A stretch of 17,149 bases of DNA, taken from positions 1 through 17,149 of the IMG/VR virus record IMGVR_UViG_2606217105_000018. One strand, 5' to 3'. The stretch is from a virus (taxonomy: Duplodnaviria > Heunggongvirae > Uroviricota > Caudoviricetes). Shown piece by piece: positions 1-17,149 of this stretch; position 1 is the first letter of the stretch, and each line of letters begins with the position of its first letter. Under the pieces are notes generated by a model. It had not been told where the DNA came from and did not search any database. It worked only from the letters and a program-made list of their open reading frames with translations. A program made the translations under genes and the position numbers.

Positions 1-1194
1 ATGGCGCGCATCACACGCCCCCTCACTAACAACGAGATCCTTAAAGCTAAACCCCGAGAAAAAGATTTCACTCTGCATGATGGGGACGGCCTGTTCTTAC
101 TCGTGAAAACATCTGGTAAAAAGCTCTGGCGCTTCCGATACCAACGTCCGGTAAGTAATAGCCGAACTAATCTGAGTCTCGGCTCATACCCTGCCATTAC
201 ACTCGCAGCTGCTCGCCAGTTACGCGACCAACATTTGGCTACACTCGCGCTGGGGATGGATCCACAACAGCAGCAAGAGCAAGCATCAGAGCAACGTCAG
301 ATTGAGCTGGATAGCATTTTCTCAACTGTCGCCGCCAACTGGTTCAAAATGAAGAGCAAAAGCGTCACTGAGGACTATGCGAAAGATATTTGGCGTTCTC
401 TAGATAAAGACGTATTCCCAGCAATAGGCGCGATACCTGTTCAGGAGATTAAGGCCAGAACGATAGTTGAAGCATTGGAACCAATCAAAGCACGCGGCGC
501 ATTAGAGACTGTTCGTCGCTTGGTCCAGCGCATTAACGAAATAATGATTTATGCAGTCAACACCGGCCTGATTGATGCTAACCCTGCATCAGGTGTTGGA
601 ATGGCATTTGAGAAACCCAAAAAGCAGAACATGCCCACGCTACGACCAGAAGAATTACCTAAGCTGATGCGTTCTTTGGTCATGTCAAACCTATCCGTTC
701 CGACTCGTTGCCTTATTGAATGGCAGCTCCTGACCCTTGTGCGCCCTTCTGAGGCTTCCGGCACTCGATGGGAAGAGATCGATCTCGATGCCAAACTCTG
801 GATGATTCCCGCCGAACGAATGAAGGCTAAGCGAGAACATATTGTCCCATTATCAGCACAAGCATTAGAATTACTTGATACAATGGAACCTATCAGTAAA
901 CATAGGGAGTATGTTTTCCCAAGCAGAAATGATCCTAAAAAAAATATGAATAGTCAGACGGCTAATGCGGCACTTAAACGCATAGGCTATGGTGGGAAAC
1001 TGGTCGCTCACGGATTACGTTCTATAGCAAGTACGGCCATGAACGAACATGGTTGGAATGCTGATATCATTGAATCAGCTCTTGCGCATATTGATAAAAA
1101 TGAAGTTCGTAGAGCATACAACAGGTCAACCTACTTGAGTCAACGGAGAGAGTTGATGAGTTGGTGGGCGGAAATAGTTAAACCAAGTAAGTAG
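1..1194 (+). CDS. intA: P4/CP4-57-type tyrosine integrase (IntA-like)
   Basis: 397-aa ORF. N-terminal block MAR.T.PLT..EI.KAKP...D..L.DGDGL.LL.K.SG.K.W.FRY and C-terminal block HGLRSIAST..NE.G...D.IE.ALAH.D.NEVRRAYNRS.YL.QRR..M.WWA match my recollection of conserved P4-family integrase sequence. The ORF begins at base 1, so any upstream att/tRNA lies outside the window. Confidence 0.9.
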   Translation: MARITRPLTNNEILKAKPREKDFTLHDGDGLFLLVKTSGKKLWRFRYQRPVSNSRTNLSLGSYPAITLAAARQLRDQHLATLALGMDPQQQQEQASEQRQIELDSIFSTVAANWFKMKSKSVTEDYAKDIWRSLDKDVFPAIGAIPVQEIKARTIVEALEPIKARGALETVRRLVQRINEIMIYAVNTGLIDANPASGVGMAFEKPKKQNMPTLRPEELPKLMRSLVMSNLSVPTRCLIEWQLLTLVRPSEASGTRWEEIDLDAKLWMIPAERMKAKREHIVPLSAQALELLDTMEPISKHREYVFPSRNDPKKNMNSQTANAALKRIGYGGKLVAHGLRSIASTAMNEHGWNADIIESALAHIDKNEVRRAYNRSTYLSQRRELMSWWAEIVKPSK

Positions 1195-1202
1195 ATAAAA
1201 TT

Positions 1203-2399
1203 ATGAGCGACTTCGATAGAATTGAGGAATTAGCAGGAGAAGGGGTCTACTCAGGCGTAGAACTCGAAGACGAGATGTCTCAGGATGACAACTCCGACAA
1301 GGAGCCATTCGATACAGATTCAATTTCAATTACTCCTAAGACAGTAGCATTGGATACTGTCTTACGCCGTATAAAAAATAATACAATAAAACTAGCTCCA
1401 GATTTTCAGCGTAGTTATGTTTGGGATAAAAAAAGGAAAAGTCAGTTAATTGAATCAATGATGCTGAAGATTCCATTACCGATGTTTTATGTTTCTGAAG
1501 ATAAAAATGGTGTATGGGAAGTTGTTGATGGATTGCAGCGCCTTACTACTATTAAAGATTTCATTTTAGGACCAGACTATGATGGTAAAGGATTTAAATT
1601 ATCTGGATTAGAGTTCTGGAGCACTCCATATGATGGCTATGATTATTTTAATTTAGAGAAGAATGATGAAAATATAAAAATAATCAATAATATTATGGAG
1701 ACTGAACTATCATTCATCATTATAAACCCTGAAACACCAGAAAAAGTTAAGAGAAATATTTTCAAGAGAATCAACACAGGTGGAATGCGGCTATCAAATC
1801 AAGAGATTAGACATGCGTTATATCAAGGGCGCGCCAGCATACTATTGAAATCCATGGTTGAAAATGATGTTTATAATGATGTTGTAGGTAGAACAGTCAA
1901 AGATGACAGAATGGCTGGTAGAGAGCTTATACTAAGGTATTTAGCTTTTACATTATTCGGCTACAATAATTATTATGGAGATATGGATGATTTTTTATCA
2001 AACACAATGAAAGCTTTAAATAATGAGAAAATTAAAGAACTTCCTTTAATTGATATACCTGAGGATGACGTTATCATTAACACATTCGAATTAGGTTTGC
2101 ACCGAACATATGAGATTTTTGGAGAACATTCTTTTCGAAAATCGTTACCTGGAGATACCAGAAAAACACCCGTTAACAAATCTCTTTTCGAACTATGGTT
2201 GTACTTATTAACAAGAGCTAAAAAAGACTCATATGACGAAATCATCTTGAAAAAAGATATTTTACTGAATGAATATAAAGACCTTCTTCAAAATTATGAG
2301 TTTATGAATTCAATAAGCCGACATGGTGCTGGAGTACAAGGCGCTAAATTTCGTAAAGATTGTCTTTTGGACTTACTAAAGAGAGTAATCAATGCTTGA
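1203..2399 (+). CDS. DUF262 (ParB/Srx-like) domain protein, cargo gene A
   Basis: 398-aa ORF. N-terminal half carries the DUF262 signature as I recall it (FQRSYVW ... IPLPMFYV ... VVDGLQRLTTI ... INTGGMRLSNQEIRHAL). No HNH/DUF1524-like His-Me motif is evident in the C-terminal half. Starts 8 bp after the int stop and overlaps the next gene by 8 bp. Region is strongly AT-rich compared with int. Confidence 0.7.
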   Translation: MSDFDRIEELAGEGVYSGVELEDEMSQDDNSDKEPFDTDSISITPKTVALDTVLRRIKNNTIKLAPDFQRSYVWDKKRKSQLIESMMLKIPLPMFYVSEDKNGVWEVVDGLQRLTTIKDFILGPDYDGKGFKLSGLEFWSTPYDGYDYFNLEKNDENIKIINNIMETELSFIIINPETPEKVKRNIFKRINTGGMRLSNQEIRHALYQGRASILLKSMVENDVYNDVVGRTVKDDRMAGRELILRYLAFTLFGYNNYYGDMDDFLSNTMKALNNEKIKELPLIDIPEDDVIINTFELGLHRTYEIFGEHSFRKSLPGDTRKTPVNKSLFELWLYLLTRAKKDSYDEIILKKDILLNEYKDLLQNYEFMNSISRHGAGVQGAKFRKDCLLDLLKRVINA

Positions 2400-3459
2400 T
2401 GAACTTGTTTTAAAATCATTTAAATCCTTTATCTATTCAAAGTTAGAACTTTCTAACATAACTGTACTCACTGGGCTAAATAGCAGTGGTAAAAGTTCAG
2501 TTCTACAAGCAATAAGAATGTGCAAATTAGTAGATAAAGACCACTCACCATATATTCAAGGATTTGGTGGGTTTACCGATCTCAAATCAAAATTGACCTC
2601 TCAACAAAAGCCTGTGCAGATTCTTCTTTCTAGTAAAGAAATGAAAAATTATCTATATCTATCACTAAGAGAAAATATAAACAAACACAGAACAAGAATA
2701 GATAGGTTTTCGGTAGAATATATCTCAGCTGATAGACATGGTCCATGCGTAACATTACCTATTATGCCTCAGGATATTGATGATATTACTGTTGGTGAAA
2801 AAGGTGAGTACTTTGCAGATTATTACTCAAAATTTGAAAGTGTTATAATACCTGAAAAACTTCGCCATGCTAATTCAACAGGAAATACGTTAAAGCATCA
2901 AATTAATCACTGGATGGGAGAAATATCACCTGGTGTTGATTTGAATTTCTCCGTTACGAAAGAGCAAGATATTTCCCATCTAGGGGTTAATGGTTTCAGA
3001 GCAACTAATACAGGGTTTGGAATAAGTTATTCACTCCCGATCGTGTTAAGTGCATTAGTAATGTCTTCAGAGGCTCCGCTAGATAGCTTCAAGCAGTCAA
3101 AAATGAAAGCATGGCATTCTAATAAAAATAAAATTTTAATAATAGAAAATCCTGAGGCGCATTTGCACCCAAAAGGCCAAACAGCTCTCGGATTATTGTT
3201 AGCTATAGCATCTTCTTGTGGTGTCCAGATAATTGTTGAAACACATAGTGACCATTTTATTGATGGCGTTCGATTAGCAGTCAAAAATGTAGGTGCTACA
3301 CTGGCTCAAAAAAGTATCATTTATTATTTTACGCGTGAGAAAGATAAGGATACAAAAATAGAGAAAATCAGAATAAAAGAAGATGGGAAGCTCACAAGCT
3401 GGCCAGAAGGTTTCTTTGACCAAAGCACAATTAATTTATCTAAATTAGCAAAAAAATAA
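2392..3459 (+). CDS. ABC/AAA_21-type ATPase (DUF3696-like C-terminus), cargo gene B
   Basis: 355-aa ORF. Walker A GLNSSGKSS near the N-terminus; Walker B-like ILIIENPEAHLHP followed by ETHSDHF (H-loop-like) near the C-terminus, typical of small SMC/ABC-like AAA_21 ATPases. The start overlaps the gene A stop (ATGCTTGA). Confidence 0.7.
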   Translation: MLDELVLKSFKSFIYSKLELSNITVLTGLNSSGKSSVLQAIRMCKLVDKDHSPYIQGFGGFTDLKSKLTSQQKPVQILLSSKEMKNYLYLSLRENINKHRTRIDRFSVEYISADRHGPCVTLPIMPQDIDDITVGEKGEYFADYYSKFESVIIPEKLRHANSTGNTLKHQINHWMGEISPGVDLNFSVTKEQDISHLGVNGFRATNTGFGISYSLPIVLSALVMSSEAPLDSFKQSKMKAWHSNKNKILIIENPEAHLHPKGQTALGLLLAIASSCGVQIIVETHSDHFIDGVRLAVKNVGATLAQKSIIYYFTREKDKDTKIEKIRIKEDGKLTSWPEGFFDQSTINLSKLAKK

Positions 3460-3461
3460 AA

Positions 3462-4370
3462 ATGAATATAATCAACTACTTAGATGAAAGATGGGTGGTG
3501 GAGTTATGTGCTAATATTCAAGATAACTCCAAAGAACTTGAGTGTTTCTTAGAATTAGCCGAAGCTGTTAAGAAAAACTGCGGGCGTTCAAGCCTCTCTC
3601 TCACCTCAAATATATGGATAATTAAATGCGGTCACGATAATTTATGTGACATCTTATATGGCCCTTTAACTCAAGATCCTGATTTAAGGGATTACCTTTT
3701 AAGACTGGCAAGAATCATTGATGAAGCTGATAGTTATGAAATAGGCAAACCTGAAACTCACGCATATAACTCAGAAGCTCATGCGGCTTTACACCATAAT
3801 AAGGCAGGAGGCCTTTTATATAAAGAAAATGAAGAATTACCTTGGTGGGATGATAGTTCCATGATATTAATTGACTGCCAAGACAAAATACTTTCTTTAT
3901 TCCGAAAACTTCCTATTTACCACAATATGGGTCTAGACGAATTTGATAGTTATCTAGAGAAATGCTTTCCTAATATATATTTTCTCGATGATGCGAGAGA
4001 TTTTTCTAAAACAGATATTAGCGAAAAAAACGACACAAAACTTTCGGTTATTATAAAGCATTTATCATATCTTAATGATCATGCACAATATGACTACCTT
4101 ATAGATCCAGAACAGTTTGAGCAAAAAGCACTTTCTCATGGTGTAGAACTATCTAGAGAAAGCAGCAGTACAAAACGAAACCAAGATGCAGTTAAAGAAA
4201 GAACAAAAAAAATAAATGAGGAGGCTCTTTTCTTTGAATTACACACCAAACTCAGTAGAGAAAAAGGTAGAATCCATTTTCATATAGGCTCAAGCCTGAG
4301 CGAAAAAATAAATAAATTAAGTGAAGGTCGTCTAATAGTTGGCATTGTGTGCAAACACTTATCAACTTAA
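3462..4370 (+). CDS. hypothetical protein, cargo gene C (no recognisable motif)
   Basis: 302-aa ORF starting 2 bp after the gene B stop; same strand and same low-GC composition as genes A and B. I could not recognise any catalytic motif by eye. Confidence 0.55.
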   Translation: MNIINYLDERWVVELCANIQDNSKELECFLELAEAVKKNCGRSSLSLTSNIWIIKCGHDNLCDILYGPLTQDPDLRDYLLRLARIIDEADSYEIGKPETHAYNSEAHAALHHNKAGGLLYKENEELPWWDDSSMILIDCQDKILSLFRKLPIYHNMGLDEFDSYLEKCFPNIYFLDDARDFSKTDISEKNDTKLSVIIKHLSYLNDHAQYDYLIDPEQFEQKALSHGVELSRESSSTKRNQDAVKERTKKINEEALFFELHTKLSREKGRIHFHIGSSLSEKINKLSEGRLIVGIVCKHLST

Positions 4371-4810
4371 TTAGTACCTCAATATTAAGCTGCCACTTTA
4401 ATCACTCATGATAAGTGGCACCTATTCATTTCAATAAAATTCCCCCTAATAAAAATCAGCACTTTTTTTTCAAATAAATAAATCAGTAACAATATTCACA
4501 TGTATAGCGGCAGAATAATTTTTTCTTAAATATCACACAATCTACATCGTGGGCCGATTTTAATGTAAGAGTACGTGTAAGGATCTAATTTGCAAAGATA
4601 GATTATTGCACGTACACATATAATTCGTTCTAAAATCTATGAGTTGCGATCATGACGCCAATAAGTATGCCTTCACGATGCGAGCCCCCCTCGTCCTGTA
4701 AGTATCCCACATCCCCCTACCTACCAATAACTTGTTGTCACTATTTATAGCTCTCTTGTTTGAATCTCAACAACAACAGTAAAAAATATGCACATTACTG
4801 CTGGCGCGCA

Positions 4811-4829
4811 ATGCTCTCCCCGCCACGCC
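4811..4829 (-). other. cos: cos-like site (P2/P4-type 19-nt cohesive end, about 16/19 match)
   Basis: Reverse complement of ATGCTCTCCCCGCCACGCC is GGCGTGGCGGGGAGAGCAT, compared with the P2/P4 cohesive end GGCGAGGCGGGGAAAGCAC as I remember it. It lies between the int-proximal cargo and psu, where cos sits in a P4 prophage. Confidence 0.4.
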
Positions 4830-4930
4830 TGCCCGCTTAAGAGGTCGCTTTTAATGCAGGTGCATGAACCAACTCAAGCCGCGCCGGTACTGGTGTTGCG
4901 TGGGATAAAAAATACGGGGATTTGCATGCA

Positions 4931-4963
4931 AAACCATGCACCTTATGGATGCATGGTTTTTTT
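4931..4963. terminator. stem-loop with T-tract, probable bidirectional terminator downstream of psu
   Basis: AAACCATGCA (4931-4940) pairs with TGCATGGTTT (4950-4959) around a 9-nt loop, followed by a run of 7 T on the plus strand. On the minus strand the same stem is followed by TTTTG about 40 nt after the psu stop. Confidence 0.45.
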
Positions 4964-5002
4964 CGGGAAAAATAGCGGAATTTTCGGGGATTTTTTTGCG
5001 TG

Positions 5003-5569
5003 CTACCGTGCGGCCAGTTCTGCACGTCGGCGGGGGTAAATCAGGTTCTGTGCCGGGGTGAATTTCTCGCGATTATCATCCCGCGAAGCCGCATCAGGCC
5101 TGAATCCGATGGCCGTTAAAATATCGTTGTCCTGCACGGAATAATTAATTTTTTTACCTGCGGCCAGCCACACCGACAGGGCTTCACGCAGATAATCAAC
5201 CGAGTGCTGCATGGCGCTCTGTTTTACTGCGGGAAGCTGTTCGTTATACCCCATCAGCTCAGGTGCCAGCGTGGCGGCCAGCTCCGCGCCGTGCTGCTGC
5301 ATAAATTCATGGAGCCGGTTGCGGATACTGATGTGCTGCACTTCCTCATGTGAGCGGATATAGCGACCGGCGGCCTGATTAATCTCCCATTTTTTCACGT
5401 CGATATCGTCGCGCAAATCCTGCATTCTGCTCGGGATTTGTTCGTCACCGGCAAGGAGCTGTTCACGGTATTCCCGTTCAAGGTCTGCCAGTTCGGCTTT
5501 ACGTTTCAGCCAGGTATTTTTGTTCGTCTGACAGGCCTCAAAGGCCTGCTGTATGGTCACAGTGGTCAC
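5003..5569 (-). CDS. psu: Psu, polarity suppression protein (P4-type, capsid decoration / Rho antagonist)
   Basis: 188-aa ORF with a GTG start preceded by AGGAG. Blocks QQAF..CQ.NK..W, VNQAAGRYIRSHE.VQHISIR.RL..FMQQHG..LAA.LAPELMGY, INYS.QD.DILT.IGFRPD.AS.DD.REKFTPAQN match my recollection of P4 Psu. Sits directly after delta on the same strand. Confidence 0.85.
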   Translation of the reverse strand: MTTVTIQQAFEACQTNKNTWLKRKAELADLEREYREQLLAGDEQIPSRMQDLRDDIDVKKWEINQAAGRYIRSHEEVQHISIRNRLHEFMQQHGAELAATLAPELMGYNEQLPAVKQSAMQHSVDYLREALSVWLAAGKKINYSVQDNDILTAIGFRPDAASRDDNREKFTPAQNLIYPRRRAELAAR

Positions 5570-5584
5570 GAGTCTCTCTCCTGA

Positions 5585-5824
5585 TTAATGCCGGAACGGC
5601 GAACTGTAGCAGCCCTGCACCTTACGCGGCGGTGGTGGCGCCACCGGCGCGGGGTCGGTTTTCTCCGGGGCGGCACGTATCACACCGTCAACCGACTCGA
5701 TGGTGCGGAAAGTGGCCGAACATTCGATATTGGTACACTGGTGATAACGCTGTTTGACGTTTTCCGACAGATAACGGCTGGTACGGACGTGCGCGGTCTT
5801 TTTGCAGAACGGACAGTGAAACAT
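5585..5824 (-). CDS. delta: Delta/Ogr-family zinc-finger late-gene activator
   Basis: 79-aa ORF MFHCPFC..TAHVRTSRY......RYHQC.N..CSATF with the C-x2-C ... C-x4-C Ogr/Delta zinc-finger pattern. Lies between sid and psu as in P4. Confidence 0.85.
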   Translation of the reverse strand: MFHCPFCKKTAHVRTSRYLSENVKQRYHQCTNIECSATFRTIESVDGVIRAAPEKTDPAPVAPPPPRKVQGCYSSPFRH

Positions 5825-5827
5825 GAT

Positions 5828-6573
5828 TCAGCCCTCTGCCTGTTCGTGGTCTTTTGCGGCCAGTTCAGCGGCAAGCTTCATCCGTCTGGCCGGGCTTCTT
5901 AACAGCGCCATATCAACCCCGGTTATGACCGGGCGATTCATGCCCGTTACGGACAGAACCGGCTCCTGCTCCATATCGAAATGATACAGGGCTGACTGCA
6001 GATTCAGGGCATCGCCCAGCTCGCGGGTCACGGTCGCACGCGGCGAGGTTTCTCCGCTCATTTCCAGCGACCGTATACGCAACAGAAAGGCACGTAACAG
6101 TGCGGGGCTGATACCGGCCAGCACTTTCTTCCATTCGCTGTTGGCGTAAGTGGTGAATGCTTTTTCGTGGGCGCTGATATAAGCCGTACCGGAGGAGCAT
6201 GCGCCAAGCATGGCGAGGCCTTTGTCTTTCTCCAGCTCGGTAATCAGACCGGTGAACTCATCAGCCAGTTCTCGGCTGGCGATACGTTTACTGTGTTCAG
6301 CTTTCAGTTCAGGAGTGAGGTTGCCGCGCAGAGTTCGAAAGCGGCTGCGCCAGTCCTGTTCGGCCTGTGCACTTTCACTGAGCGCGGTCTGTCGTTCCTG
6401 CTCACAACGCTGAATGGAAGCCTCAATGTCGCTGAGTTTACCCATGCTGGCCGTGTGTGCGTCTTTTGCTTCGTTAAGTGCGGCCAGCGCACCGGCAATA
6501 AGTTGTTCCGCGCCTTCATCCTGTTTACTGATAACGGTCTGCATGGCTTTGATAATGAGTTCGGGTTTCATGT
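5828..6573 (-). CDS. sid: Sid-like external scaffold (capsid size determination) protein
   Basis: Ala/Glu-rich, probably coiled-coil, protein immediately upstream of delta-psu on the same strand. I prefer the ATG at 6573 (MKPELI..., GGAG about 8 nt upstream) over the longer ORF starting at 6637, because a TGT-N12-ACA dyad at 6644-6661 would otherwise fall inside the coding region. Confidence 0.65.
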
Positions 6574-6643
6574 TCAGGCTCTCCGTGTGTTCAACCTGAA
6601 ATGATTCTGACGCCTCCTGCACAACAACACGATTCATTGCCGT

Positions 6644-6661
6644 TGTCAGAGTGCTGGCACA
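6644..6661 (-). promoter_or_regulatory. TGT-N12-ACA dyad, candidate Delta/Ogr activator site of a Psid-like late promoter
   Basis: TGTcagagtgctggcACA centred about 80 bp upstream of the proposed sid start. P2/P4 late promoters carry a TGT-N12-ACA element near -55. Such a 6-nt-defined dyad also occurs by chance, so position is the main argument. Confidence 0.3.
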
Positions 6662-6740
6662 AACAGACCTTAAAATCAGGCTGGCCAGAGAAAGGTCGCA
6701 GGAAAACCTTACTCACCGTTTGTTTTTTTACTTATAACTA

Positions 6741-6842
6741 TTCACCACTGTTCACCTTAAATAAAAAGATAAGTAATACAGTAAGTTAAATGGTTAACAG
6801 TTGAAGGTCTGACTGTTCACCGTCTGTTCACCACTGTTCACC
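6741..6842. repeat. cluster of TGTTCACC iterons (P4 ori-like alpha-binding sites)
   Basis: TGTTCACC at 6749-6756, 6814-6821, 6825-6832 and 6835-6842, plus a partial copy at 6741-6748, in the sid/vis divergent intergenic region. This octamer is the P4 type I iteron bound by alpha protein. Confidence 0.6.
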
Positions 6843-6924
6843 CTCCTGTTTTGCTCTGGTTATAGCATTTAGACTTTATTTTGATTAAAAATGAAAAATA
6901 TATAACTAAAAGCAATAGAAATTG

Positions 6925-6984
6925 CTGCATTGTAATGCAGTGATTTGCATATGTTTGCCAGCGTTTGCCATTGTTTGCCAGAGC
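6925..6984. promoter_or_regulatory. palindrome TGCATTGTAATGCA followed by three direct GTTTGCCA repeats upstream of the vis-like gene
   Basis: The sequence TGCATTGTAATGCAgtgatttgcatatGTTTGCCAgcGTTTGCCAttGTTTGCCAgag can be read directly. It lies about 130-180 bp upstream of the 7109 start, so it is a candidate operator for the early/late switch. Confidence 0.3.
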
Positions 6985-7108
6985 GAAAAGTCAATGTTTG
7001 TTTCCCCGAAAATCTCACATGACCTGAGGAAAAATATAGACATAATAAGGAGCTACCCGAAGCCGGACGGACACGACCGGCACTGTATGGACTTTGTGAG
7101 GTAGCCCG

Positions 7109-7375
7109 ATGCACACTGCTTTTTCTTCCCCGTCTTCTGCCCCTGCCGCGCCGCTGATGCCGGTTTCTGATACCGTTCACGAGCGCTTTATCCGTCTGCC
7201 CGAAGTGATGCATCTGTGCGGCCTGTCCCGCTCGACCATTTACGACCTCATCAGCCGGGAAGCCTTCCCGAAACAAATCTCCCTCGGCGGAAAAAATGTG
7301 GCGTGGGCGCAGTCTGAAATCACTGCATGGATGGCGGATCGCATTGCCGAACGTAACCGGGGCTATGACGCATGA
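7109..7375 (+). CDS. alpA: AlpA/Vis-family excisionase-like transcriptional regulator
   Basis: 88-aa ORF. Core [55 protein letters not shown] is a typical AlpA-family helix-turn-helix. GAGG lies about 9 nt before the ATG at 7109; an alternative start at 7157 is possible. Confidence 0.8.
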
Positions 7376-7728
7376 TGATGACCATTCAGCAAACAGCCCC
7401 TTTTTCTGGCTTGCTTCTTTTCGCCGTTTCCAGGTATAGTTTTCCCGCTGTCGCAAAATCGGCAGCCGGGCGTAGGAACCCGAGTTACTCAATGGCGACA
7501 CCGGACGCGCCATGCGTCTTTTTTTACGTCGTTGCTCAGGCACACCCATTTTTCGGGCTGTGGTGTTTACACCTTAGCCCCTGTCAGATAATGGTGATCC
7601 GGGCGGGGCAGCCTTCGGGCTGGCCGGTATTCATTGAGGCCGGTATTCCTACCCCCGTTCGGGTCACCACCCATGAGCGTAGGAACTCCGGTGGTGGCAA
7701 TAACCGCTACTCAATGGAGGTTGCCACT
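7376..7728 (+). ncRNA. candidate P4-type immunity RNA / leader region with repeated complementary boxes
   Basis: GCGTAGGAAC occurs at 7471-7480 and 7676-7685; TACTCAATGG at 7486-7495 and 7709-7718; the complementary GTTCCTAC-like box (ggtattcctaccc) at about 7640-7652. This resembles the seqA/seqB/seqC arrangement of the P4 cI RNA system. Exact RNA ends are not determinable by eye. Confidence 0.25.
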
Positions 7729-7923
7729 ATGGCTACGACCCTCACCCCGTCACACCCGCAATTTGTCTTTGTGTTTGCTGCTGTTCGTCGCGCAGACCGT
7801 ACCCCTCGTATTTGTATGCTCCGCACCGTTGCCGGTGATGAGCACGCCGCACGCCTTTCTCTCGTTCGCGATTACGTTCTCTCGTTTGCTGGCCGTCTGC
7901 CGGTTGCGGAGGTTCGCGCATGA
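7729..7923 (+). CDS. small hypothetical protein of the satellite early operon
   Basis: ATG at 7729 with GGAGG 8 nt upstream; 64 codons ([16 protein letters not shown]...). Its stop overlaps the next start (ATGA). This is the only protein-like part of the long 7372..7923 ORF. Confidence 0.3.
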
Positions 7924-8147
7924 GACACACCACCATTACCGCCCGTGACCTCGAATGTCTGGAGCATATGCGCAATGTCGGCCAGCTCGTCAATGAGCTG
8001 ATGCAGGTGCAGGACTGCGCCACCGTTCGTCGTGACCCGGCGCAGCAGTTACAGCTCACCTCCGTGATTTACCTCATGACCGCCCAGCTCGACGGCGTGG
8101 TCGAACGCTGCAATCAGCAGTGGCTGACCGGGGAGGGTAACGCATGA
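7920..8147 (+). CDS. hypothetical protein, satellite early operon
   Basis: 75-aa ORF with ATGA overlaps at both ends (translational coupling), same strand, directly upstream of the alpha operon genes. Occupies the slot where P4 epsilon would lie, but I cannot confirm identity. Confidence 0.5.
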
Positions 8148-8464
8148 AACAGCCATTACCGCCCGTATTACGCGCCGCGCTGTATCGTCGCGCCGTGGCC
8201 TGTGCATGGCTGACCCTGTGCGAACGCCAGCACCGCTACCCGCACCTCACCCTCGACGCGCTGGAAAGCGCCATTGCCGCCGAGCTGGAGGGCTTTTACC
8301 TGCGCCAGCACGGCGAGGAAAAAGGTCGCCAGATTGCCTGTGCACTGCTGGAAGATTTAATGGAAGCCGGACCACTCAAAGCCGCGCCGTCGCTGTCCTT
8401 TTTCGGGCTGGCCGTGATGGATGAGCTTTGCGCCCGTCATATCACCGCACCGGCACTGCACTGA
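8144..8464 (+). CDS. hypothetical protein, satellite early operon
   Basis: 106-aa ORF, start overlapping the previous stop (ATGA), ending 15 bp before the alpha start. Confidence 0.5.
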
Positions 8465-8478
8465 GGGAGAAAATAACT

Positions 8479-10812
8479 ATGAAAATGAACGTAACGGAAA
8501 CCGTAAAACAGGCGTGCGGTCACTGGCCGCGCATTCTCCCTGCGCTGGGTGTGAAGGTGATTAAAAACCGCCATCAGGCCTGTCCGGTGTGTGGCGGCTC
8601 TGACCGTTTCCGCTTTGACGATAAAGAAGGGCGCGGGACGTGGTTCTGCAATCAGTGTGGCGCAGGTGACGGGCTTAAGCTGGTAGAGAAAGTGTTTGGC
8701 GTGACCCCGTCAGAAGCTGCCGGGAAGGTGAACGCCGTGACCGGCAATCTGTCGCCGGTTGCCCCGGAAGTGATTGCGGCCGCAGAGGCTGAAACCGATG
8801 CCGATCGCAAAGCGGCGGCCGAGCTGGCCGCGAAACTGATGGAGAAAACCCGACCGGCCACCGGCAACGCCTACCTCACCCGCAAGGGCTTCCCCGCTCT
8901 GGAATGTCTGACGCTCACCGTCATGCATAAAACCGGCGGCGTGACGTTCCGCGCCGGGGATGTGGTTGTCCCGCTGTATGACGATACCGTCGCACTGGTT
9001 AACCTTCAGCTTATCAATGCTGACGGTCTCAAACGCACCCTGAAAGGCGGTCAGGTCAAAGGGGCATGTCATATCATCGAAGGGAAAAAACAGGCCGGAA
9101 AACGCCTGTGGATTGCAGAGGGTTATGCGACCGCACTCACCGTGCATCACCTGACCGGGGAAACCGTCATGGTGGCGCTGTCCTCCGTGAACCTCCTTTC
9201 TCTGGCGAGCCTTGCCCGTCAGAAATATCCGGCCTGTCAGATTGTGCTCGCTGCCGACCGTGACCTTAACGGCGACGGCCAGAGTAAAGCCGCTGCGGCC
9301 GCAGATGCCTGTGAGGGCATTGTTGCCCTGCCGCCGGTGTTCGGTGACTGGAATGATGCGTTTATACAGTACGGCGAGGAGGCCACGCGCAAGACTATTT
9401 ATGACGCCATCCGGCCACCGGCGCAAAGCCCATTCGACACCATGAGCGAGGCGGAATTTACCGCCATGAGCGCCAGCGACAAGGCTTTGCGGGTGCATGA
9501 GCATTACGGTGAAGCGCTGGCGGTGGATGCGAACGGCCAGCTCCTGTCCCGCTATGAAAACGGCATCTGGAAAAATATCCCTGCCGCCACTTTTTCACGG
9601 AATGTGGCTGATTTATTCCAGCGCTTACGCGCCCCGTTCTCGTCCGGGAAAATTGCCTCGGTGGTGGAGACCCTGAAACTGATTATTCCGCAGCAGGATA
9701 CACCGGCGCGCCGTCTGATTGGCTTTCGCAACGGGGTACTCGATACTCAAAGCGGCGTATTCAGCCCGCACCACAAATCGCACTGGCTGCGCACATTGTG
9801 CGATGTGGATTTCACCCCGCCGGTGGAGGGGGAAACGCTGGAGACGCACGCGCCGAACTTCTGGCGCTGGCTCGACCGTGCAGCCGGTAAAAATCCACAA
9901 AAACGCGACGTGATTCTGGCTGCGCTGTTTATGGTGCTGGCGAACCGTTACGACTGGCAGCTCTTTCTCGAAGTGACCGGTCCCGGCGGGAGTGGCAAAA
10001 GTATTCTGGCTGAAATCGCGACCCTGCTCGCCGGAGAGGATAACGCCACGTCAGCCGATATCGACACACTGGAAGACCCGCGCAAGCGTGCCTCCCTGAT
10101 TGGCTTCTCGCTTATCCGTCTGCCTGACCAGGAAAAATGGAGCGGTGACGGCGCAGGACTCAAGGCCATCACCGGCGGCGATGCAGTTTCAGTTGACCCG
10201 AAATACCAGAATCCGTACTCAACGCATATTCCGGCGGTGATTCTGGCCGTGAACAATAACCCCATGCGCTTCACCGACCGCAGCGGCGGTGTGTCACGCC
10301 GCCGGGTGATTATTCACTTCCCGGAACAGATTGCCCCGGAGGAACGCGACCCGCAGCTCAGGGATAAAATTGCGCGCGAGCTGGCCGTCATTGTGCGCCA
10401 GCTTATGCAGAAATTCAGCGACCCGATGACCGCACGCGCACTGCTTCAGTCGCAGCAGAACTCCGACGAGGCGCTCAGCATTAAGCGCGATGCTGACCCG
10501 ACATTTGATTTTTGCGGCTATCTGGAAATGCTCCCGCAGACCAACGGGATGTTTATGGGGAATGCCAGCATCATCCCGCGGAATTATCGTAAATATCTCT
10601 ATCACGCGTATCTGGCCTATATGGAGGCCAACGGCTACAGAAACGTGCTCAGCCTGAAAATGTTCGGGCTGGGGCTGCCCATGATGCTGAAAGAGTACGG
10701 CCTGAATTATGAGAAGCGGCACACCAAGCAGGGGATACAGACCAATCTGTCGCTGAAAGAGGAAAGCTACGGCGACTGGCTGCCGAAGTGCGACGAACCC
10801 GCAGCAACATAA
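8479..10812 (+). CDS. alpha: Alpha-type primase-helicase (zinc-binding primase, TOPRIM, D5-like helicase)
   Basis: N-terminal CPVCGG...FCNQCG zinc-binding motif, a primase region, and Walker A GPGGSGKS in the C-terminal helicase part. ATG at 8479 has a strong GAGGGAGA Shine-Dalgarno and gives 777 aa, the size I recall for P4 alpha. The ORF-track start at 8428 lacks a ribosome-binding site and overlaps the preceding gene. Confidence 0.9.
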   Translation: MKMNVTETVKQACGHWPRILPALGVKVIKNRHQACPVCGGSDRFRFDDKEGRGTWFCNQCGAGDGLKLVEKVFGVTPSEAAGKVNAVTGNLSPVAPEVIAAAEAETDADRKAAAELAAKLMEKTRPATGNAYLTRKGFPALECLTLTVMHKTGGVTFRAGDVVVPLYDDTVALVNLQLINADGLKRTLKGGQVKGACHIIEGKKQAGKRLWIAEGYATALTVHHLTGETVMVALSSVNLLSLASLARQKYPACQIVLAADRDLNGDGQSKAAAAADACEGIVALPPVFGDWNDAFIQYGEEATRKTIYDAIRPPAQSPFDTMSEAEFTAMSASDKALRVHEHYGEALAVDANGQLLSRYENGIWKNIPAATFSRNVADLFQRLRAPFSSGKIASVVETLKLIIPQQDTPARRLIGFRNGVLDTQSGVFSPHHKSHWLRTLCDVDFTPPVEGETLETHAPNFWRWLDRAAGKNPQKRDVILAALFMVLANRYDWQLFLEVTGPGGSGKSILAEIATLLAGEDNATSADIDTLEDPRKRASLIGFSLIRLPDQEKWSGDGAGLKAITGGDAVSVDPKYQNPYSTHIPAVILAVNNNPMRFTDRSGGVSRRRVIIHFPEQIAPEERDPQLRDKIARELAVIVRQLMQKFSDPMTARALLQSQQNSDEALSIKRDADPTFDFCGYLEMLPQTNGMFMGNASIIPRNYRKYLYHAYLAYMEANGYRNVLSLKMFGLGLPMMLKEYGLNYEKRHTKQGIQTNLSLKEESYGDWLPKCDEPAAT

Positions 10813-10860
10813 CCTCACTCAGACCGGCAACAGCCGGTCTTTTCCTTTCTGGCCATTGCC

Positions 10861-11152
10861 ACAGGGTGAACAATCCACTGTTCACCCTTCACCGTATATT
10901 CACCCTGTATCACCATGAAATTATTGATAAAAAACCAGAGGTGAACAGTGTGAACAGTAAAACCTGAAAAAACTTTTTATCACCCCTCACATCGCCTGAG
11001 CGGACGGTTCCAGAACGAGCACAAATCACAAAGGTGAAGAGTCGACTGTTCACTCTTCACCAACCGTTCACCACTTATCATTCTGATATTAAAAAGAAAA
11101 ATAACGAGGTGAACAGTGTGAACAGTTAAATGCAAAAAAACTTTTTTTCAAT
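10861..11152. repeat. crr-like region: two direct repeats of about 110 bp, each carrying TGTTCACC/GGTGAACA iterons
   Basis: Repeat 1 is about 10873-10985 and repeat 2 about 11041-11152. Each has ctgttcac.cttcacc..., then gaggtgaacagtgtgaacagt, then an A6-8CTTTTT element. This matches the published description of the P4 cis replication region downstream of alpha. Confidence 0.6.
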
Positions 11153-11458
11153 GCTCATTGTTTAAGAAAAAAAGACCACATGAAAAAGGTGGCACATTTC
11201 TAAAGAGGGATCGTATTACTATGACATTTCATAATTGGTACACGTTTAGGTACACAACTGAAAGTTGAATACGGAAAAATCCTTTACATTTAATATATTA
11301 AGAAATTTATTCAGACTCCGCCAGCCCACCAATCATGATTGGACGGTGTAAGGACAACACCAACAAAAACAGGAAGTTAGCAGTCTCAGCAGGACACCGA
11401 CCAGACGGTGAGGAGACAAAAAAGGATACGCAAAGGAGCCGCGGCTCTCGAGTGACAC

Positions 11459-11490
11459 AAAAGCCCGCTTATGCGGGCTTTTTGTTTTTC
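11459..11490 (+). terminator. rho-independent terminator
   Basis: AAAGCCCGC-TTAT-GCGGGCTTT perfect hairpin followed by TTGTTTTTC, about 70 bp upstream of the endonuclease gene. Confidence 0.5.
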
Positions 11491-11559: not shown

Positions 11560-12774
11560 ATGTATATGTCGGTTTTTCATAACTGGCTGCTTGATATCGC
11601 AAGCGGGAATTACTTTATCTACATCAAACGCCTTTCTGCAAACGACACAGGCGCAACAGGTGGCCATCAGGTCGGACTTTATATCCCCTCAAATATCGTT
11701 GAAAAGCTTTTTCCATCTATCAATCATACTCGCGAACTGAACCCTTCAGTCTTCCTTACTGCGCATGTATCATCCCATGATTGCCCTGATACCCAAGCAC
11801 GCGCAATTTATTACAACAACCGTTATTTTGGTAAGACCCGAAACGAAAAAAGAATTACGCGCTGGGGGAGAGGAAGTCCATTACAGAACCCTGAAAATAC
11901 AGGAGCCCTCACAATTCTTGCTTTCAGGTTAAACGAACAGAACACTGACTGTTCCGAGGTAGATATATGGGTCTGCGTCAATCCCGATGAAGAGGATATC
12001 ATCGAGTCTGCTATTGGCGAAATCATACCTGGAACCCTAATTTCCGGCCCTGCCGGACAAATTTTGGGCGGATTGTCTCTTCAGCAAACTCCAGTAAATC
12101 ATAAATATGTTATTCCTGAAGACTGGAAGAAGCGTTTTCCTTCTGGAAACGAAATTATTCAATATGCTGCTGGCCATTATGCTAAAAACTCCAAGGATCC
12201 AGATGAGCAACTGATTGACCGTCGGCGTGTCGAGTATGATATTTTTCTACTCGTCGAGGAATTACATGTTCTTGATATTATTAAGAAAGGATTCGATTCT
12301 GTAGATGAGTTTATTGCATTAGCCAACTCTGTCAGTAATCGACGTAAATCAAGGGCAGGCAAATCACTTGAACTTCACCTAGAGAAGCTTTTTATCGAGC
12401 ACGGACTACGGCATTTCTCCACTCAGGCAGTTACTGAAGGTAATAAAAAACCAGATTTCCTGTTTCCTTCAGCAGAGGCATATCATAACGTTGAATTTCC
12501 TGTAGAAAACTTACGTATGCTGGCAGTAAAGACCACCTGCAAAGATCGCTGGCGTCAGATACTGAATGAAGCAGATAAAATCCATCAGGTACATTTATTT
12601 ACACTGCAAGAAGGTGTTTCTTCAGCACAATACCGAGAAATGAAAGATGCGGGTGTCAGACTCGTTGTACCATCAACTTTACATAAAAAATACCCAGAAG
12701 CAGTTAGAGAAGAATTAATAACGCTCGGAGCATTCATTACTGAGCTGATAGAGCTTTACGCTGAACTATCATAG
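11560..12774 (+). CDS. ecoRIIR: Type IIE restriction endonuclease, EcoRII family (CCWGG)
   Basis: ORF of 404 aa from 11560, or 402 aa from the ATG at 11566 which has better AAGGGA spacing. The sequence matches my recollection of R.EcoRII; size and convergent pairing with a Dcm/M.EcoRII-like methyltransferase support the call. Confidence 0.8.
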   Translation: MYMSVFHNWLLDIASGNYFIYIKRLSANDTGATGGHQVGLYIPSNIVEKLFPSINHTRELNPSVFLTAHVSSHDCPDTQARAIYYNNRYFGKTRNEKRITRWGRGSPLQNPENTGALTILAFRLNEQNTDCSEVDIWVCVNPDEEDIIESAIGEIIPGTLISGPAGQILGGLSLQQTPVNHKYVIPEDWKKRFPSGNEIIQYAAGHYAKNSKDPDEQLIDRRRVEYDIFLLVEELHVLDIIKKGFDSVDEFIALANSVSNRRKSRAGKSLELHLEKLFIEHGLRHFSTQAVTEGNKKPDFLFPSAEAYHNVEFPVENLRMLAVKTTCKDRWRQILNEADKIHQVHLFTLQEGVSSAQYREMKDAGVRLVVPSTLHKKYPEAVREELITLGAFITELIELYAELS

Positions 12775-12779
12775 GCTGA

Positions 12780-12802
12780 CTCCCGGCTTAAAAGGCCGGG
12801 AG
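12780..12802. terminator. inverted repeat between the convergent R and M genes (weak bidirectional terminator candidate)
   Basis: CTCCCGGC-ttaaaag-GCCGGGAG lies between the R stop (12774) and the M stop (12809). No clear T-tract on either side. Confidence 0.3.
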
Positions 12803-12808
12803 ATGTTC

Positions 12809-14242
12809 TCAAGGCTGCCCAGTCTTACCAGCATCAGCAGAAACAGCTTTGAGGATATAGGGTTCCAGAAGTCTGGCAACAGCTTCAAATACTGGCACCA
12901 CAACTGAGTTACCGAACTGCCGATATGACTGAGTATCTGAAACCGGAATACGGAATGGTTTCCCTCCAGGTTTTTCAAATCCCATAAGGCGTGCGCACTC
13001 TCGGGGAGTCAGCCTGCGTGGTCGACGAGCCTGATTACTCTCATTCATAAAGTCAGCCTCTCCCGTTGCCATATCCCAACCACGATCAATAAGAATTTCT
13101 GATCCGTCTTTGTGATATCTGGCAGAAAGTGTGCGTGCAATGCTTTCCTTATTCTCAGGATTGACCAACCCAAAGCCAAAACCATTCCCCTTGGCTGCAT
13201 GCTTTTTGGCGTAGTTATAAAGGTACTCCCATAGTTTTGGCGTAAGTATATATTTACTGTCGACTACAGGCTCCAGCAATTCACCAAATGATGGGCGGTG
13301 TTCCGGATAAAAACGACTGATATCACGCAAGGTAAACCCCTTGTGAATATTCAGATCTCGTCTAAATCCGACCAGAACAATACGTTCACGATGCTGAGGC
13401 AAAAAATGCTTCCCATCGATAATCTTTGGATCGTTTTTTCCCATTTCTGCAGCATCGGCAACTTCGTAGCCCAGCTCGTCAAGGGTCTCCATAATGACTT
13501 TGAAAGTTTTACCCTTATCATGGCTCTTCAGATTTTTGACATTTTCCAGCACAAAAATTGCCGGTTTTTTTGCTCGTATAATACGTGCCACGTCAAAAAA
13601 AAGTGTTCCTTGTGCTTCACATTCAAAACCATGCGCACGACCAAGTGAGTTTTTCTTACTAACACCAGCAAGGCTAAATGGCTGGCACGGGAACCCCGCA
13701 AGAAGCACATCATGATCCGGCACATGCTCATCAATATATGCATAAGCATCCGTTTCCAATACATCGGTTTTATCACTCAGCGTGACTTCCCGAATATCGA
13801 GATTGAATTTATGCACCTGTTCATCGTTAAACCAGTTGGCCTTGTATGTACGCACAGCATCTTTATTCCATTCACTGGTAAAAACACACTGGCCTCCAAT
13901 GGCCTCAAAACCTTTCCGTATCCCTCCAATTCCAGCAAATAAGTCAATGAAGCGGAAAGCATATTCCGGATGGTTTGCAGGTGGTTCTGGTAGCATCTTA
14001 CGCAGAAGAGACTCTTCTACTGAAGTCAACGATTTTGGTAAACACTTGCCATTAATCCAGCGGTTAATGGTTTCACGGCTCCACTCATTTTTTCCGACTT
14101 TTCTCAGTAATTCAGCCACATACTTCTGATCATAGATTTCCAGCACTTTCTCGATAAGCTTTTTATCATTTTCCTGTCGCAGCTTTTCTTCCGCCTCGGC
14201 TTCCTTCAGCAGATGCTGTGCCAACACTTCAAATTCAGACAT
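12809..14242 (-). CDS. ecoRIIM: C5-cytosine DNA methyltransferase, Dcm/M.EcoRII family (CCWGG)
   Basis: Motif [18 protein letters not shown], the catalytic [11 protein letters not shown] (PC motif) and ENVKNL (motif VI). Starting at the internal ATG 14242 (MSEFEVL..., GGAGG 7 nt upstream) gives 477 aa, the size I recall for M.EcoRII. The ORF-track start at 14284 has no ribosome-binding site. Confidence 0.9.
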
Positions 14243-14603
14243 AATTCCTCCAAGGGGTCTAATGGGTGAAACTTTATCACTCATTCAACCCAGAAGGAAA
14301 TGTTTTATCTGGATATTTAAACAGTGACTACAACGTAATCTAGCACTGGTGATGCTTTGTTAGGCATAGAGAATCATTCTATATACGACTAATGACAGAA
14401 AAACAGCAGACAAGTAGTTTGTTCATAAATTAACGCATACTATGTGTCTACGGTTTTCGAGACCGGTCCAATCATCAAACGAAACATAAAATTAGCTCAC
14501 ATTATGAGGAAAAGTATCTTTTTTGTACTATGTAAATTCAAAGGCTTAGCCTCATTTCTCCGATGGTTTTCTCAACACTACTGGTTGTGAGCCCTTGCAA
14601 TGA

Positions 14604-15422
<819 letters not shown>

Positions 15423-15491: not shown

Positions 15492-16076
15492 TTACACGGT
15501 GTCTGGTTCTTCTGGCCACTCAATATCCGGTGCAGTTGATGTATCAACACGGTTCAGCAACACCCGATACTTTTTCCAGGCTTCCAGCAATGAGGTTTCT
15601 TCCTCCGTTGCGATTTCCAGATCTACAGCATCCTGAAGTGGCGCAATATGCTCACTGGCTACCTGCATCAGGCTGTTTTTTGTTTCTTCTGCCTCCCGGA
15701 TCCGGAACAGTTTTTCTGCTTCCGTATCCTTCACCCAGGCTGTGCCGTTCCACTTCTGATATTCCCCTCCCGGCGACAACCAGGTAACATTTTCCGGTAA
15801 CGGACCGAGTTCAGAAATAAATAACGCGTCGCCGGAAGCCACGTCATAAACCGTTTTACCCCGATGGTCTTCAACGAGATGCCACGATGCCTCATCACTG
15901 TTGAAAACAGCCACGAAGCCTGCCGGAATATCTGGTGGTGCAATATCGGTACTGTTTGCTGGCAGACCTGTATGAGGCGGAATATATGCGTCACCTTCAC
16001 CAATAAATTCATTAGTTCCGGCCAGCAGATTATAAATTTTTATGGTCCGTGCTTGTTCACTCATTCTGAATGCCAT
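15492..16076 (-). CDS. tfa: tail fibre assembly protein (Tfa family chaperone)
   Basis: 194-aa [50 protein letters not shown]..., a typical lambdoid Tfa N-terminus. Its ATG overlaps the upstream tail-fibre stop (TAATG). Confidence 0.85.
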
Positions 16077-17149
16077 TATGCAAGCCTCACAATATAGTTA
16101 AATGCGATGTTTTTGACGGTGTTTTCCGCGTTACCAGCAGCGTTAACGGTGATGGTGTGTCCATGTGAACCAATCGCAACGGAGTGCGTATGAGCACCAA
16201 TACCGACAGTATGCGCGTGTGCACCTGCAGATGCTGCTGTGCCGGACAGTGAATGGCTATGATTACCATCTGTACTGGTATTCGCTAACCACCCCGTAGA
16301 CATACCTACTGAGCCTTGTACACCCCAGGTATTTTGACCTGAGCTTGTATAACCATATTGATAAGTATCTTTAAAAACACTGGGGTTAAATCGACGGCCA
16401 TCTCTATGGCTGTGATTACCAGCTGCATTCGTGCTGCCACTTAAACTATGGGTATGCGCACCAGTGTTATTCGTGGATTTAGTGCCGTAATCAAACGACG
16501 ATGTGGTTTTCGTCCCCAAATCCGTACTGGATGCGCTGGCGCTGTGGGTGTGCGATTTAATACCGTCCTGTTCCTGAGACAAGCAGACCTCGCTGCTGCG
16601 CTGGCCTGTTCAGTGGCTTCGCCAGCCTTCGTTGTGGCTGTTGAAGCAGACGATGCGGCACTTTCTGCCGATTTTCCGGCGGCGGTGGCACTGGCTGAGG
16701 CCTGCCCGGCACTTGTTGACGCGGCACTGGCAGACGACGCAGCCGCTGTTTTTGAGCCTGCCGCAGCCGAGGCGCTCTGTCCCGCTGCCGTTTCAGAAGA
16801 CCTGGCGTTTGTCTCAGACGTCTTTGCCGCCTTCGCGGAATTGCCTGCCGCCGTTGCCGAGGAAGCGGCACTACTGGCGCTTGATGATGCGTTCGTTTCT
16901 GATGATTTCGCTGCCTCTTTTGAGGCCGCCGCATCCCGGGCTGAGGTGGCTGCTTCTGACGCCTTCGTGGTCGCGGCGGATGCAGAAGTGGCTGCTGATT
17001 GTTGTGACGCTGCCGCATTCGTTTCTGACGTTTTCGCCGCAGCGGCACTGGTAGCTGCCGCGCTTTTTGAGGACTCTGCAGCGGCAGCACTTTTTGATGC
17101 TTCAGTGGCCTTTGTTGATGCCGTTCCTGCGCTGGAAGACGCTGACTGA
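16076..17149 (-). pseudogene. stf: side tail fibre protein, partial at window edge and apparently frameshifted
   Basis: The C-terminal 168 codons (16076-16582) carry H-x-H repeats ([28 protein letters not shown]) and end in [15 protein letters not shown]. The region 16583-17149 is open in a different minus-strand frame that encodes a Ser/Ala/Thr-rich repeat with recurring KTSETNA units, typical of a tail-fibre N-terminal shaft. The two frames overlap only between about 16460 and 16611. Confidence 0.5.

Follow-up and report, generated by a model that had tools for sequence, protein, structure and literature searches.

P2-type terminase packages P2 and P4 DNA from monomeric circles, and lambda packages from concatemers. 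Despite a cos that differs at two positions, phage 186 can serve as a P4 helper. The minimal functional P2 cos measures about 125 bp, and the ends of P4 cos were reportedly defined experimentally by Ziermann and Calendar in 1990. A 55-bp cos core of P2-family phages is credited to Ziermann & Calendar 1990 in PMC5694545. In P4-like satellites, a defence hotspot lies directly adjacent to cos, and the junction between conserved and variable sequence has been shown (Rousset et al. 2022, PMC9122126). The variable defence cargo of this hotspot sits between psu and int, next to cos (PMC9122126, PMC8628076), and the locus described here shows no difference in kind from it. In P4 itself (NC_001609 / X51522), cos is located downstream of psu and upstream of a non-essential region, an arrangement found here in the same orientation.

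In the window, i.e., the whole 17,149-nucleotide stretch of viral DNA that was analysed, positions 4811-4829 read ATGCTCTCCCCGCCACGCC, and the reverse complement is GGCGTGGCGGGGAGAGCAT. A preliminary description had proposed that this reverse complement is a roughly 16/19 match to the P2/P4 cohesive end and lies at the position expected for cos. Comparison with the phage records confirmed both points. The P4 (NC_001609) and P2 (NC_001895) records begin with the 19 bases GGCGAGGCGGGGAAAGCAC, which the window motif matches at exactly 16/19 positions in either case, and the 186 record (NC_001317) begins with GGCGTGGCGGGGAAAGCAT, matched at 18/19. These first 19 bases are annotated as cosL or cos in the P2 and 186 records. 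The substitutions relative to P2 and P4 fall at positions 5, 14 and 19 (A5T, A14G and C19T), where natural phages vary too (5 and 19 in 186, 14 in pro483), and the 19-mer fits the P2/P4-family form GGCG(A/T)GGCGGGGA(A/T/G)AGCA(C/T). It is the sole site in the window with three or fewer mismatches to the P2/P4 19-mer; 200 shuffles gave a mean of 0.01 such sites. The site is found between psu and the variable region, 173 bp downstream of the stop codon of psu, its fixed neighbour; the distance in P4 is 164 bp.

An absence of alignment outside the 19-mer would have spoken against the preliminary description, but the similarity reaches far into the flanks. An alignment with the circularised cos junctions of P4, P2 and 186 revealed a 56-bp core (window 4804-4859) with 45/56, 46/56 and 50/56 identical positions, respectively, and a looser alignment to about 127 bp on the psu side. 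Conservation is unbroken along the core, in which CTGCATTAAAA and AAGCGGGCA precede the 19-mer and TGCGCGC follows it, and the adjoining 60 bp of cargo-side sequence match P4, P2 and 186 at only 19-25/60 positions, which is background. This core corresponds to the 55-bp core of the P2-family phages. Offsets are counted from the 19-mer, so that -1 to -35 denote 4830 to 4864 and +19 to +25 denote 4810 to 4804. All seven bases of the cargo-side flank agree with P2 and 186, and six of the seven with P4. The psu-side flank is identical to P2, P4 and 186 at 25-29/35 positions, and most of its positions are 95-100% conserved in satellites and phages alike; it is likely to be the terminase recognition part of the core.

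A blastn search of 50,697 phage records revealed matches in 72 P2-like or P4 records, spanning window ~4797-4956. TGCA motifs occur within the module at 4855, 4861, 4923, 4927, 4937 and 4950, i.e., six in 131 bp on the psu side against 0.6 expected, a number that none of 20,000 shuffles reached. The motifs at offsets -29, -35, -101, -111 and -124 have the same offsets in P4 and 186, and P2 lacks the one at -35. The outer part of the module overlaps a hairpin at 4930-4960 (RNA fold of -22.9 kcal/mol, z = -4.3), which is kept in P4, where it likewise follows psu, and in 87 satellites. This hairpin probably acts as an intrinsic terminator for the sid-delta-psu operon. It was detected only by folding and by repeat search; a simple scan of 4300-5100 for promoters and terminators gave no candidates, because the hairpin did not fit its rules on loops and T runs. 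The termini of phage records map onto the site as well: the P4 blastn alignment stops one base before the end of the record, so the last base of P4 corresponds to window 4830, and the first base of phage P37 corresponds to window 4811. Positions 4830 and 4811 border the 19-mer on its two sides. At sequence level, the site has all the characteristics of a P2/P4-family cos, as the preliminary description had suspected, and window 4804-4956 is very probably the cos (packaging) site of an intact P4-like satellite, with 4811-4829 as its 19-nt cohesive end.

The closest cos match is that of 186 (Eganvirus, NC_001317) and the 186-like phages, which also have the same left-side TGCGCGCCAG. However, these phages have an A at position 14 where the window has G, a portal gene about 190 bp away on the left-end side, and their variable region on the right-end side of cos. 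Lambda cos (cosN/cosB/cosQ) resembles the site in its staggered terminase nicks, 5' cohesive ends and recognition sequences beside the nick (PMC4669245), but its sequence is unrelated and its overhangs have 12 nt instead of 19 nt.

The features of the window are collected in the table. By its predicted genes, the window holds a complete P4-like satellite apart from an epsilon homologue: the core set of psu, delta, sid, alpA, alpha and integrase is all present, and the gene order is the P4 map reversed. In a tblastn search with P4 proteins, identity was 85% for alpha, 70% for orf88, 63% for Psu, 39% for Delta, 36% for Int and 29% for Sid. No counterpart of P4 gop, beta or cII was found in the window by tblastn, and P4 epsilon had no tblastn match there at E <= 1e-3. 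Epsilon, the helper derepression gene, was not counted as defining a P4-like satellite. A 75-aa ORF (7920-8147) occupies the epsilon position, and a 75-aa protein absent from P4 is frequent in the epsilon region (de Sousa & Rocha 2022, PMC8628076). The isrK and C4 RNAs, which make up the P4 CI-type immunity RNA region, sit within the Ash-family ORF. The crr-like repeats have the position and size of the 120-bp crr repeats of P4.

Table. Features of the satellite, its cos module and the neighbouring island, in window coordinates
Feature	Position	Strand	Evidence or remark
Tyrosine integrase (int)	1..1194	+	Pfam Phage_integrase, Phage_int_M, Arm-DNA-bind_3; forms the second fixed slot edge
Variable cargo slot between int and cos	1195..4803	+	3609 bp; nsnABC and spacer
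nsnA	1203-2399	+	PADLOC NsnA, full-length, E 8.6e-123; DUF262/GmrSD_N
nsnB	2392-3459	+	PADLOC NsnB, full-length, E 1.6e-99; AAA_15/21 + DUF3696 ATPase
nsnC	3462-4370	+	PADLOC NsnC, full-length, E 2.5e-124
AT-rich non-coding spacer	4371-4803		433 bp, between nsnC and cos
Whole cos module	4804..4956	.	~153 bp; common to satellite and P2-like phages (blastn and alignment)
Conserved 7-bp cargo-side flank	4804..4810	-	TGCGCGC; last conserved stretch before the variable slot
cosN-equivalent 19-mer	4811..4829	-	Predicted 5' cohesive end 5'-GGCGTGGCGGGGAGAGCAT-3'
Conserved psu-side flank	4830..4864	-	Offsets -1 to -35; includes CTGCATTAAAA and AAGCGGGCA
Perfect 11-nt inverted repeat	4930..4960	-	AAAACCATGCA/TGCATGGTTTT, followed by a T run; repeat search and folding
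psu (polarity suppression, capsid decoration)	5003-5569	-	Pfam Psu, E 1.8e-87; 63% to P4 Psu
delta (helper late-gene activation)	5585-5824	-	Pfam Ogr_Delta zinc finger, E 8.6e-21; 39% to P4 Delta
sid (capsid-size determination)	5828-6637	-	P4 Sid 29%, E 1e-24; start codon uncertain
alpA-like gene	7109-7375	+	Pfam Phage_AlpA
Ash-family gene	7372-7923	+	Pfam
isrK RNA	7447-7524	+	Rfam, 70.9 bits
C4/CI-type immunity RNA	7587-7674	+	Rfam C4 antisense RNA, 81.3 bits (gathering score 45)
DUF5375 gene	8144-8464	+	Pfam
alpha primase-helicase	8428-10812	+	Primase-helicase domains; 85% identical to P4 alpha
crr-like direct repeats	10865-10982 and 11033-11150		~118 bp, ~75% identical; downstream of alpha
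Satellite right end	~11483		Homology to L048 and L006-L008 stops here
EcoRII-type restriction enzyme	11560-12774		Second island, directly after the satellite right end
Dcm-like C5 methyltransferase	12809-14284	-	Second island
LEM-3-like GIY-YIG protein	14649-15422		Second island
Tail-fibre assembly and tail-fibre remnants	15492-16582	-	Second island

The three genes at 1203-4370 are predicted to be a complete Menshen defence system. A combination of the same Pfam architecture (DUF262, a hypothetical protein and AAA_15/AAA_21/DUF3696) is listed in the hotspot table of Rousset 2022 (PMC9122126). P4 differs from the window in that its slot carries gop/beta/cII in place of Menshen NsnABC; the window integrase is only 36% identical to that of P4 and uses ssrA, not P4's own attachment site. 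The spacer after nsnC has no internal ORF longer than 32 aa. It contains imperfect inverted repeats (4566-4587/4599-4620 and 4598-4612/4626-4640), and it accompanies the cargo in a second element, L048, described below.

An IMG/VR search with the exact 19-mer revealed 108 contigs, 87 with the motif beside psu, 19 with it beside a P2 Q-like portal gene and 2 unclassified. Contigs with psu alongside were therefore taken as satellites and those with the Q-like portal gene as P2-like phages. The psu-to-cos distance is 174-183 bp (74 satellites), and in the phage contigs the portal gene lies on the opposite side from psu, 190-200 bp from cos. Because the 19-mer occurs in both groups, an identical cohesive end is common to satellites and potential helpers. 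Offsets +19 to +25 are at least 97% conserved in the 87 satellites and 100% conserved in the 19 phages, and offsets -1 to -9 are at least 95% conserved in the 19-mer contigs; both stretches lay outside the search pattern, which was the exact 19-mer only. The Psu proteins adjoining the sites are merely 49-99% identical to the window Psu. Near-invariant cos flanks beside such diverged Psu proteins argue for selection on the site.

We also ran a degenerate scan, which allowed variation at positions 5, 14 and 19 only. Allele frequencies from its listed matches describe a sample and not a census. The matches listed were P2-type, 186-type and pro483-type alleles, mostly in phages. The window allele (T5, G14, T19) occurs in 87 satellites vs 19 phages of IMG/VR and the other cos alleles in 9 satellites vs 94 phages among the matches listed (loci L009-L116 and L120-L233), counts that ignore relatedness and sampling. 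G14 is absent from P2, P4, 186 and all six named cultured phages inspected, and among phages it was found only in uncultured IMG/VR contigs. The excess of the G14 allele in satellites could reflect a satellite-adapted packaging signal instead of shared descent.

That the site forms the right edge of the cargo slot had also been proposed, and the comparison of three E. coli relatives with other cargos and the 87 IMG/VR satellites upheld and refined this: the edge falls between 4804 and 4803, which places it 7 bp outside the 19-mer. Identity to the window in the 87 satellites is at least 97% through offset +25 (4804) and 26-33% at +26 and +28. Between these, an A is semi-conserved at +27 (75%), and the sequence is at background past +28. 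Since conservation runs through 4804 and the sequence is random from 4803, cos marks the fixed edge of the cargo slot. The three E. coli relatives at the ssrA locus (L006-L008) have int and window ~4802-11483 in common at 94-96% identity, and their slots hold PARIS (AAA ATPase + DUF4435), Drt3a/b or a helicase/nuclease pair. A megablast search with window 3900-5700 against 5,426 complete E. coli genomes found matches in 271 genomes; nearly all matches listed start at window 4801-4805, with a few starting up to ~20 bp earlier. None of the matches listed covered the cargo side, represented in the query by window 3900-4800 (the spacer and the 3' end of nsnC). The slot has a G+C content of 31-38% and the core one of 52-58%, with the break near 4800. 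From int to cos the distance ranges from 995 to 3847 bp (median 2497, n=61), the 3609-bp slot of the window being among the largest.

The 86 usable satellite contigs carry 70 distinct 40-mers at offsets +26 to +65, which fall into 65 clusters. A few satellites, the window included, retain a 186-like CAGC(A/G)GTAATGT for about 12 further bases. Promotion of cargo exchange by the cos nick was raised as speculation by Rousset et al. 2022 (PMC9122126). The 70 junctions on one 19-mer all start at or after offset +26 and none closer, a pattern that fits exchange begun at a free cohesive end and limited on the inner side by cos function. On this ground it is conceivable, if rather doubtful, that the cos nick itself drives cargo swapping. 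The cos-adjacent arrangement of the cargo is already published (Rousset et al. 2022); the present description of it is correct and ordinary, with no new biology, and its small quantitative additions are the 70 junctions on one cos allele and a boundary resolved to the base, 7 bp past the nick.

The preliminary description had further held that the cargo is packaged and transferred with the satellite. A cos alone does not entail cargo packaging, and the extent of the element was therefore of interest. A second element in IMG/VR (3300000357_000240, L048) is 99.8% identical to window 1-11483, cargo included, with an int identity of 100%. In L048, the tmRNA gene ssrA lies on the int side, 183 bp upstream of int, and ypjA-side DNA lies opposite. 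The distance from the 3' end of ssrA to the right junction is about 11,665 bp, compared with 11,624 bp for P4, and thus suits the small P4-type capsid, which takes about 11-12 kb. Because the cargo is located between int and cos inside this ssrA-bounded, P4-sized unit of about 11.66 kb, packaging initiated at cos from the excised circle would have to include it. It is therefore sound to expect that the cargo would be packaged along with the satellite, at the extreme left end of the linear DNA.

L048 comes from a separate sample and has a right flank that differs from that of the window, which implies recent mobility. This makes it improbable that the cos is genuine but vestigial, belonging to a fixed, no longer mobilisable island at ssrA whose cargo is not transferred. 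The core genes are all full-length ORFs, the immunity RNA is intact, and P4 length is kept despite the large cargo; moreover, the core is invariant across satellites with Psu at 49-70% identity, which points to purifying selection on the site of the family. A vestigial site would, on the other hand, be in keeping with the junctions and the surroundings of the element. No att core was found, i.e., no direct repeat of at least 11 bp when the ssrA-proximal junctions of L006-L008 and L048 were compared with the distal ones; a 12-bp junction match was rejected as an att site, being a terminator-stem match. The last ~35 bp on the right-hand side (11447-11483) differ from L048, with paired stem changes (GCCCGC...GCGGGC vs GCCCAC...GTGGGC), and attR, or a joint formed by recombination with the adjacent island, may lie at this divergence. 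The same 11447-11483 stretch forms a terminator-like hairpin. The element is bordered directly by a second island, made up of EcoRII R-M and a prophage remnant, and the window contains no helper phage and, as noted above, no epsilon homologue.

The EcoRII R-M genes (11560-14284) were considered as a second cargo that would make the element unpackageably large. This was rejected because homology to four satellites stops at 11483 and because E. coli AR_0013 has the same layout at ssrA, with the R-M block between the satellite and a prophage remnant. Within the tail-fibre assembly gene remnant of the window, an Rfam IS009 RNA match of 229 bits was seen at 15535-15733 (minus strand).

It is hardly credible that the cos belongs to a P2-like helper prophage remnant and not to the satellite: although the 19-mer and its cargo-side flank (TGCGCGCCAGCAGT) are closely 186-type (18/19) and 613R3 matches to +33, no portal or terminase gene is adjacent, no P2 Q/P homologues were found in the window, psu lies at the satellite-typical 173 bp, and satellite-type bases are present at offsets -45 and -47. 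That the site is a G+C-rich motif arisen by chance, or a part of the psu terminator or of an 83-aa ORF (4788-5039) with no packaging function, is effectively refuted by the flank alignment and has a negligible probability, given the ~150 bp of homology to experimentally defined cos regions, the 0.01 sites expected by chance and the separate location of the terminator-like hairpin at 4930-4960. The site is indeed overlapped by the 83-aa ORF on the plus strand and by a 62-aa ORF on the minus strand, and the 83-aa frame is open for at least 60 codons in 65% of the satellites, but a protein-coding reading of the site was rejected, as the ORF start at 4788 falls in the non-conserved slot and no CDS is annotated there in P4 or in PGAP-annotated relatives.

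For a functional cos in an intact P4-like satellite, homology, position, conservation, slot boundary and element size were observed, and we infer the following course of cleavage, packaging and transfer, with a helper of presumed P2/186 type. Points against this reading are the G14 base, not seen in the named phages above, the lack of a helper phage, an att core repeat and an epsilon homologue in the searches described, and the divergence of the right end from L048. In the presence of such a helper, the satellite would leave ssrA as a circle of about 11.66 kb. The helper terminase would recognise the psu-side flank (offsets -1 to about -127, with its fixed TGCA array) together with the 7-bp TGCGCGC, and would cut with a 19-nt stagger, nicking the minus strand at 4830|4829 and the plus strand at 4810|4811, a geometry borrowed from the 186 annotation. 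The linear genome (~11.7 kb) would then be packaged into helper capsids resized by Sid. After injection, the 5' overhangs (GGCGTGGCGGGGAGAGCAT and its complement) would anneal and the circle would be resealed. The variable defence slot with Menshen NsnABC, which reaches from int to within 7 bp of the nick, would travel with the satellite.

The packaged satellite genome would thus start at 4829 and end at 4830 in circular terms, with Menshen at its left end, and the conserved block 4804-4956 would be what the helper terminase must see. These coordinates are useful for annotating the element, and the boundary and the junction diversity bear on how cargo is exchanged. The finding supports the view that the cargo is a defence system which a P4-like satellite carries along in horizontal transfer.
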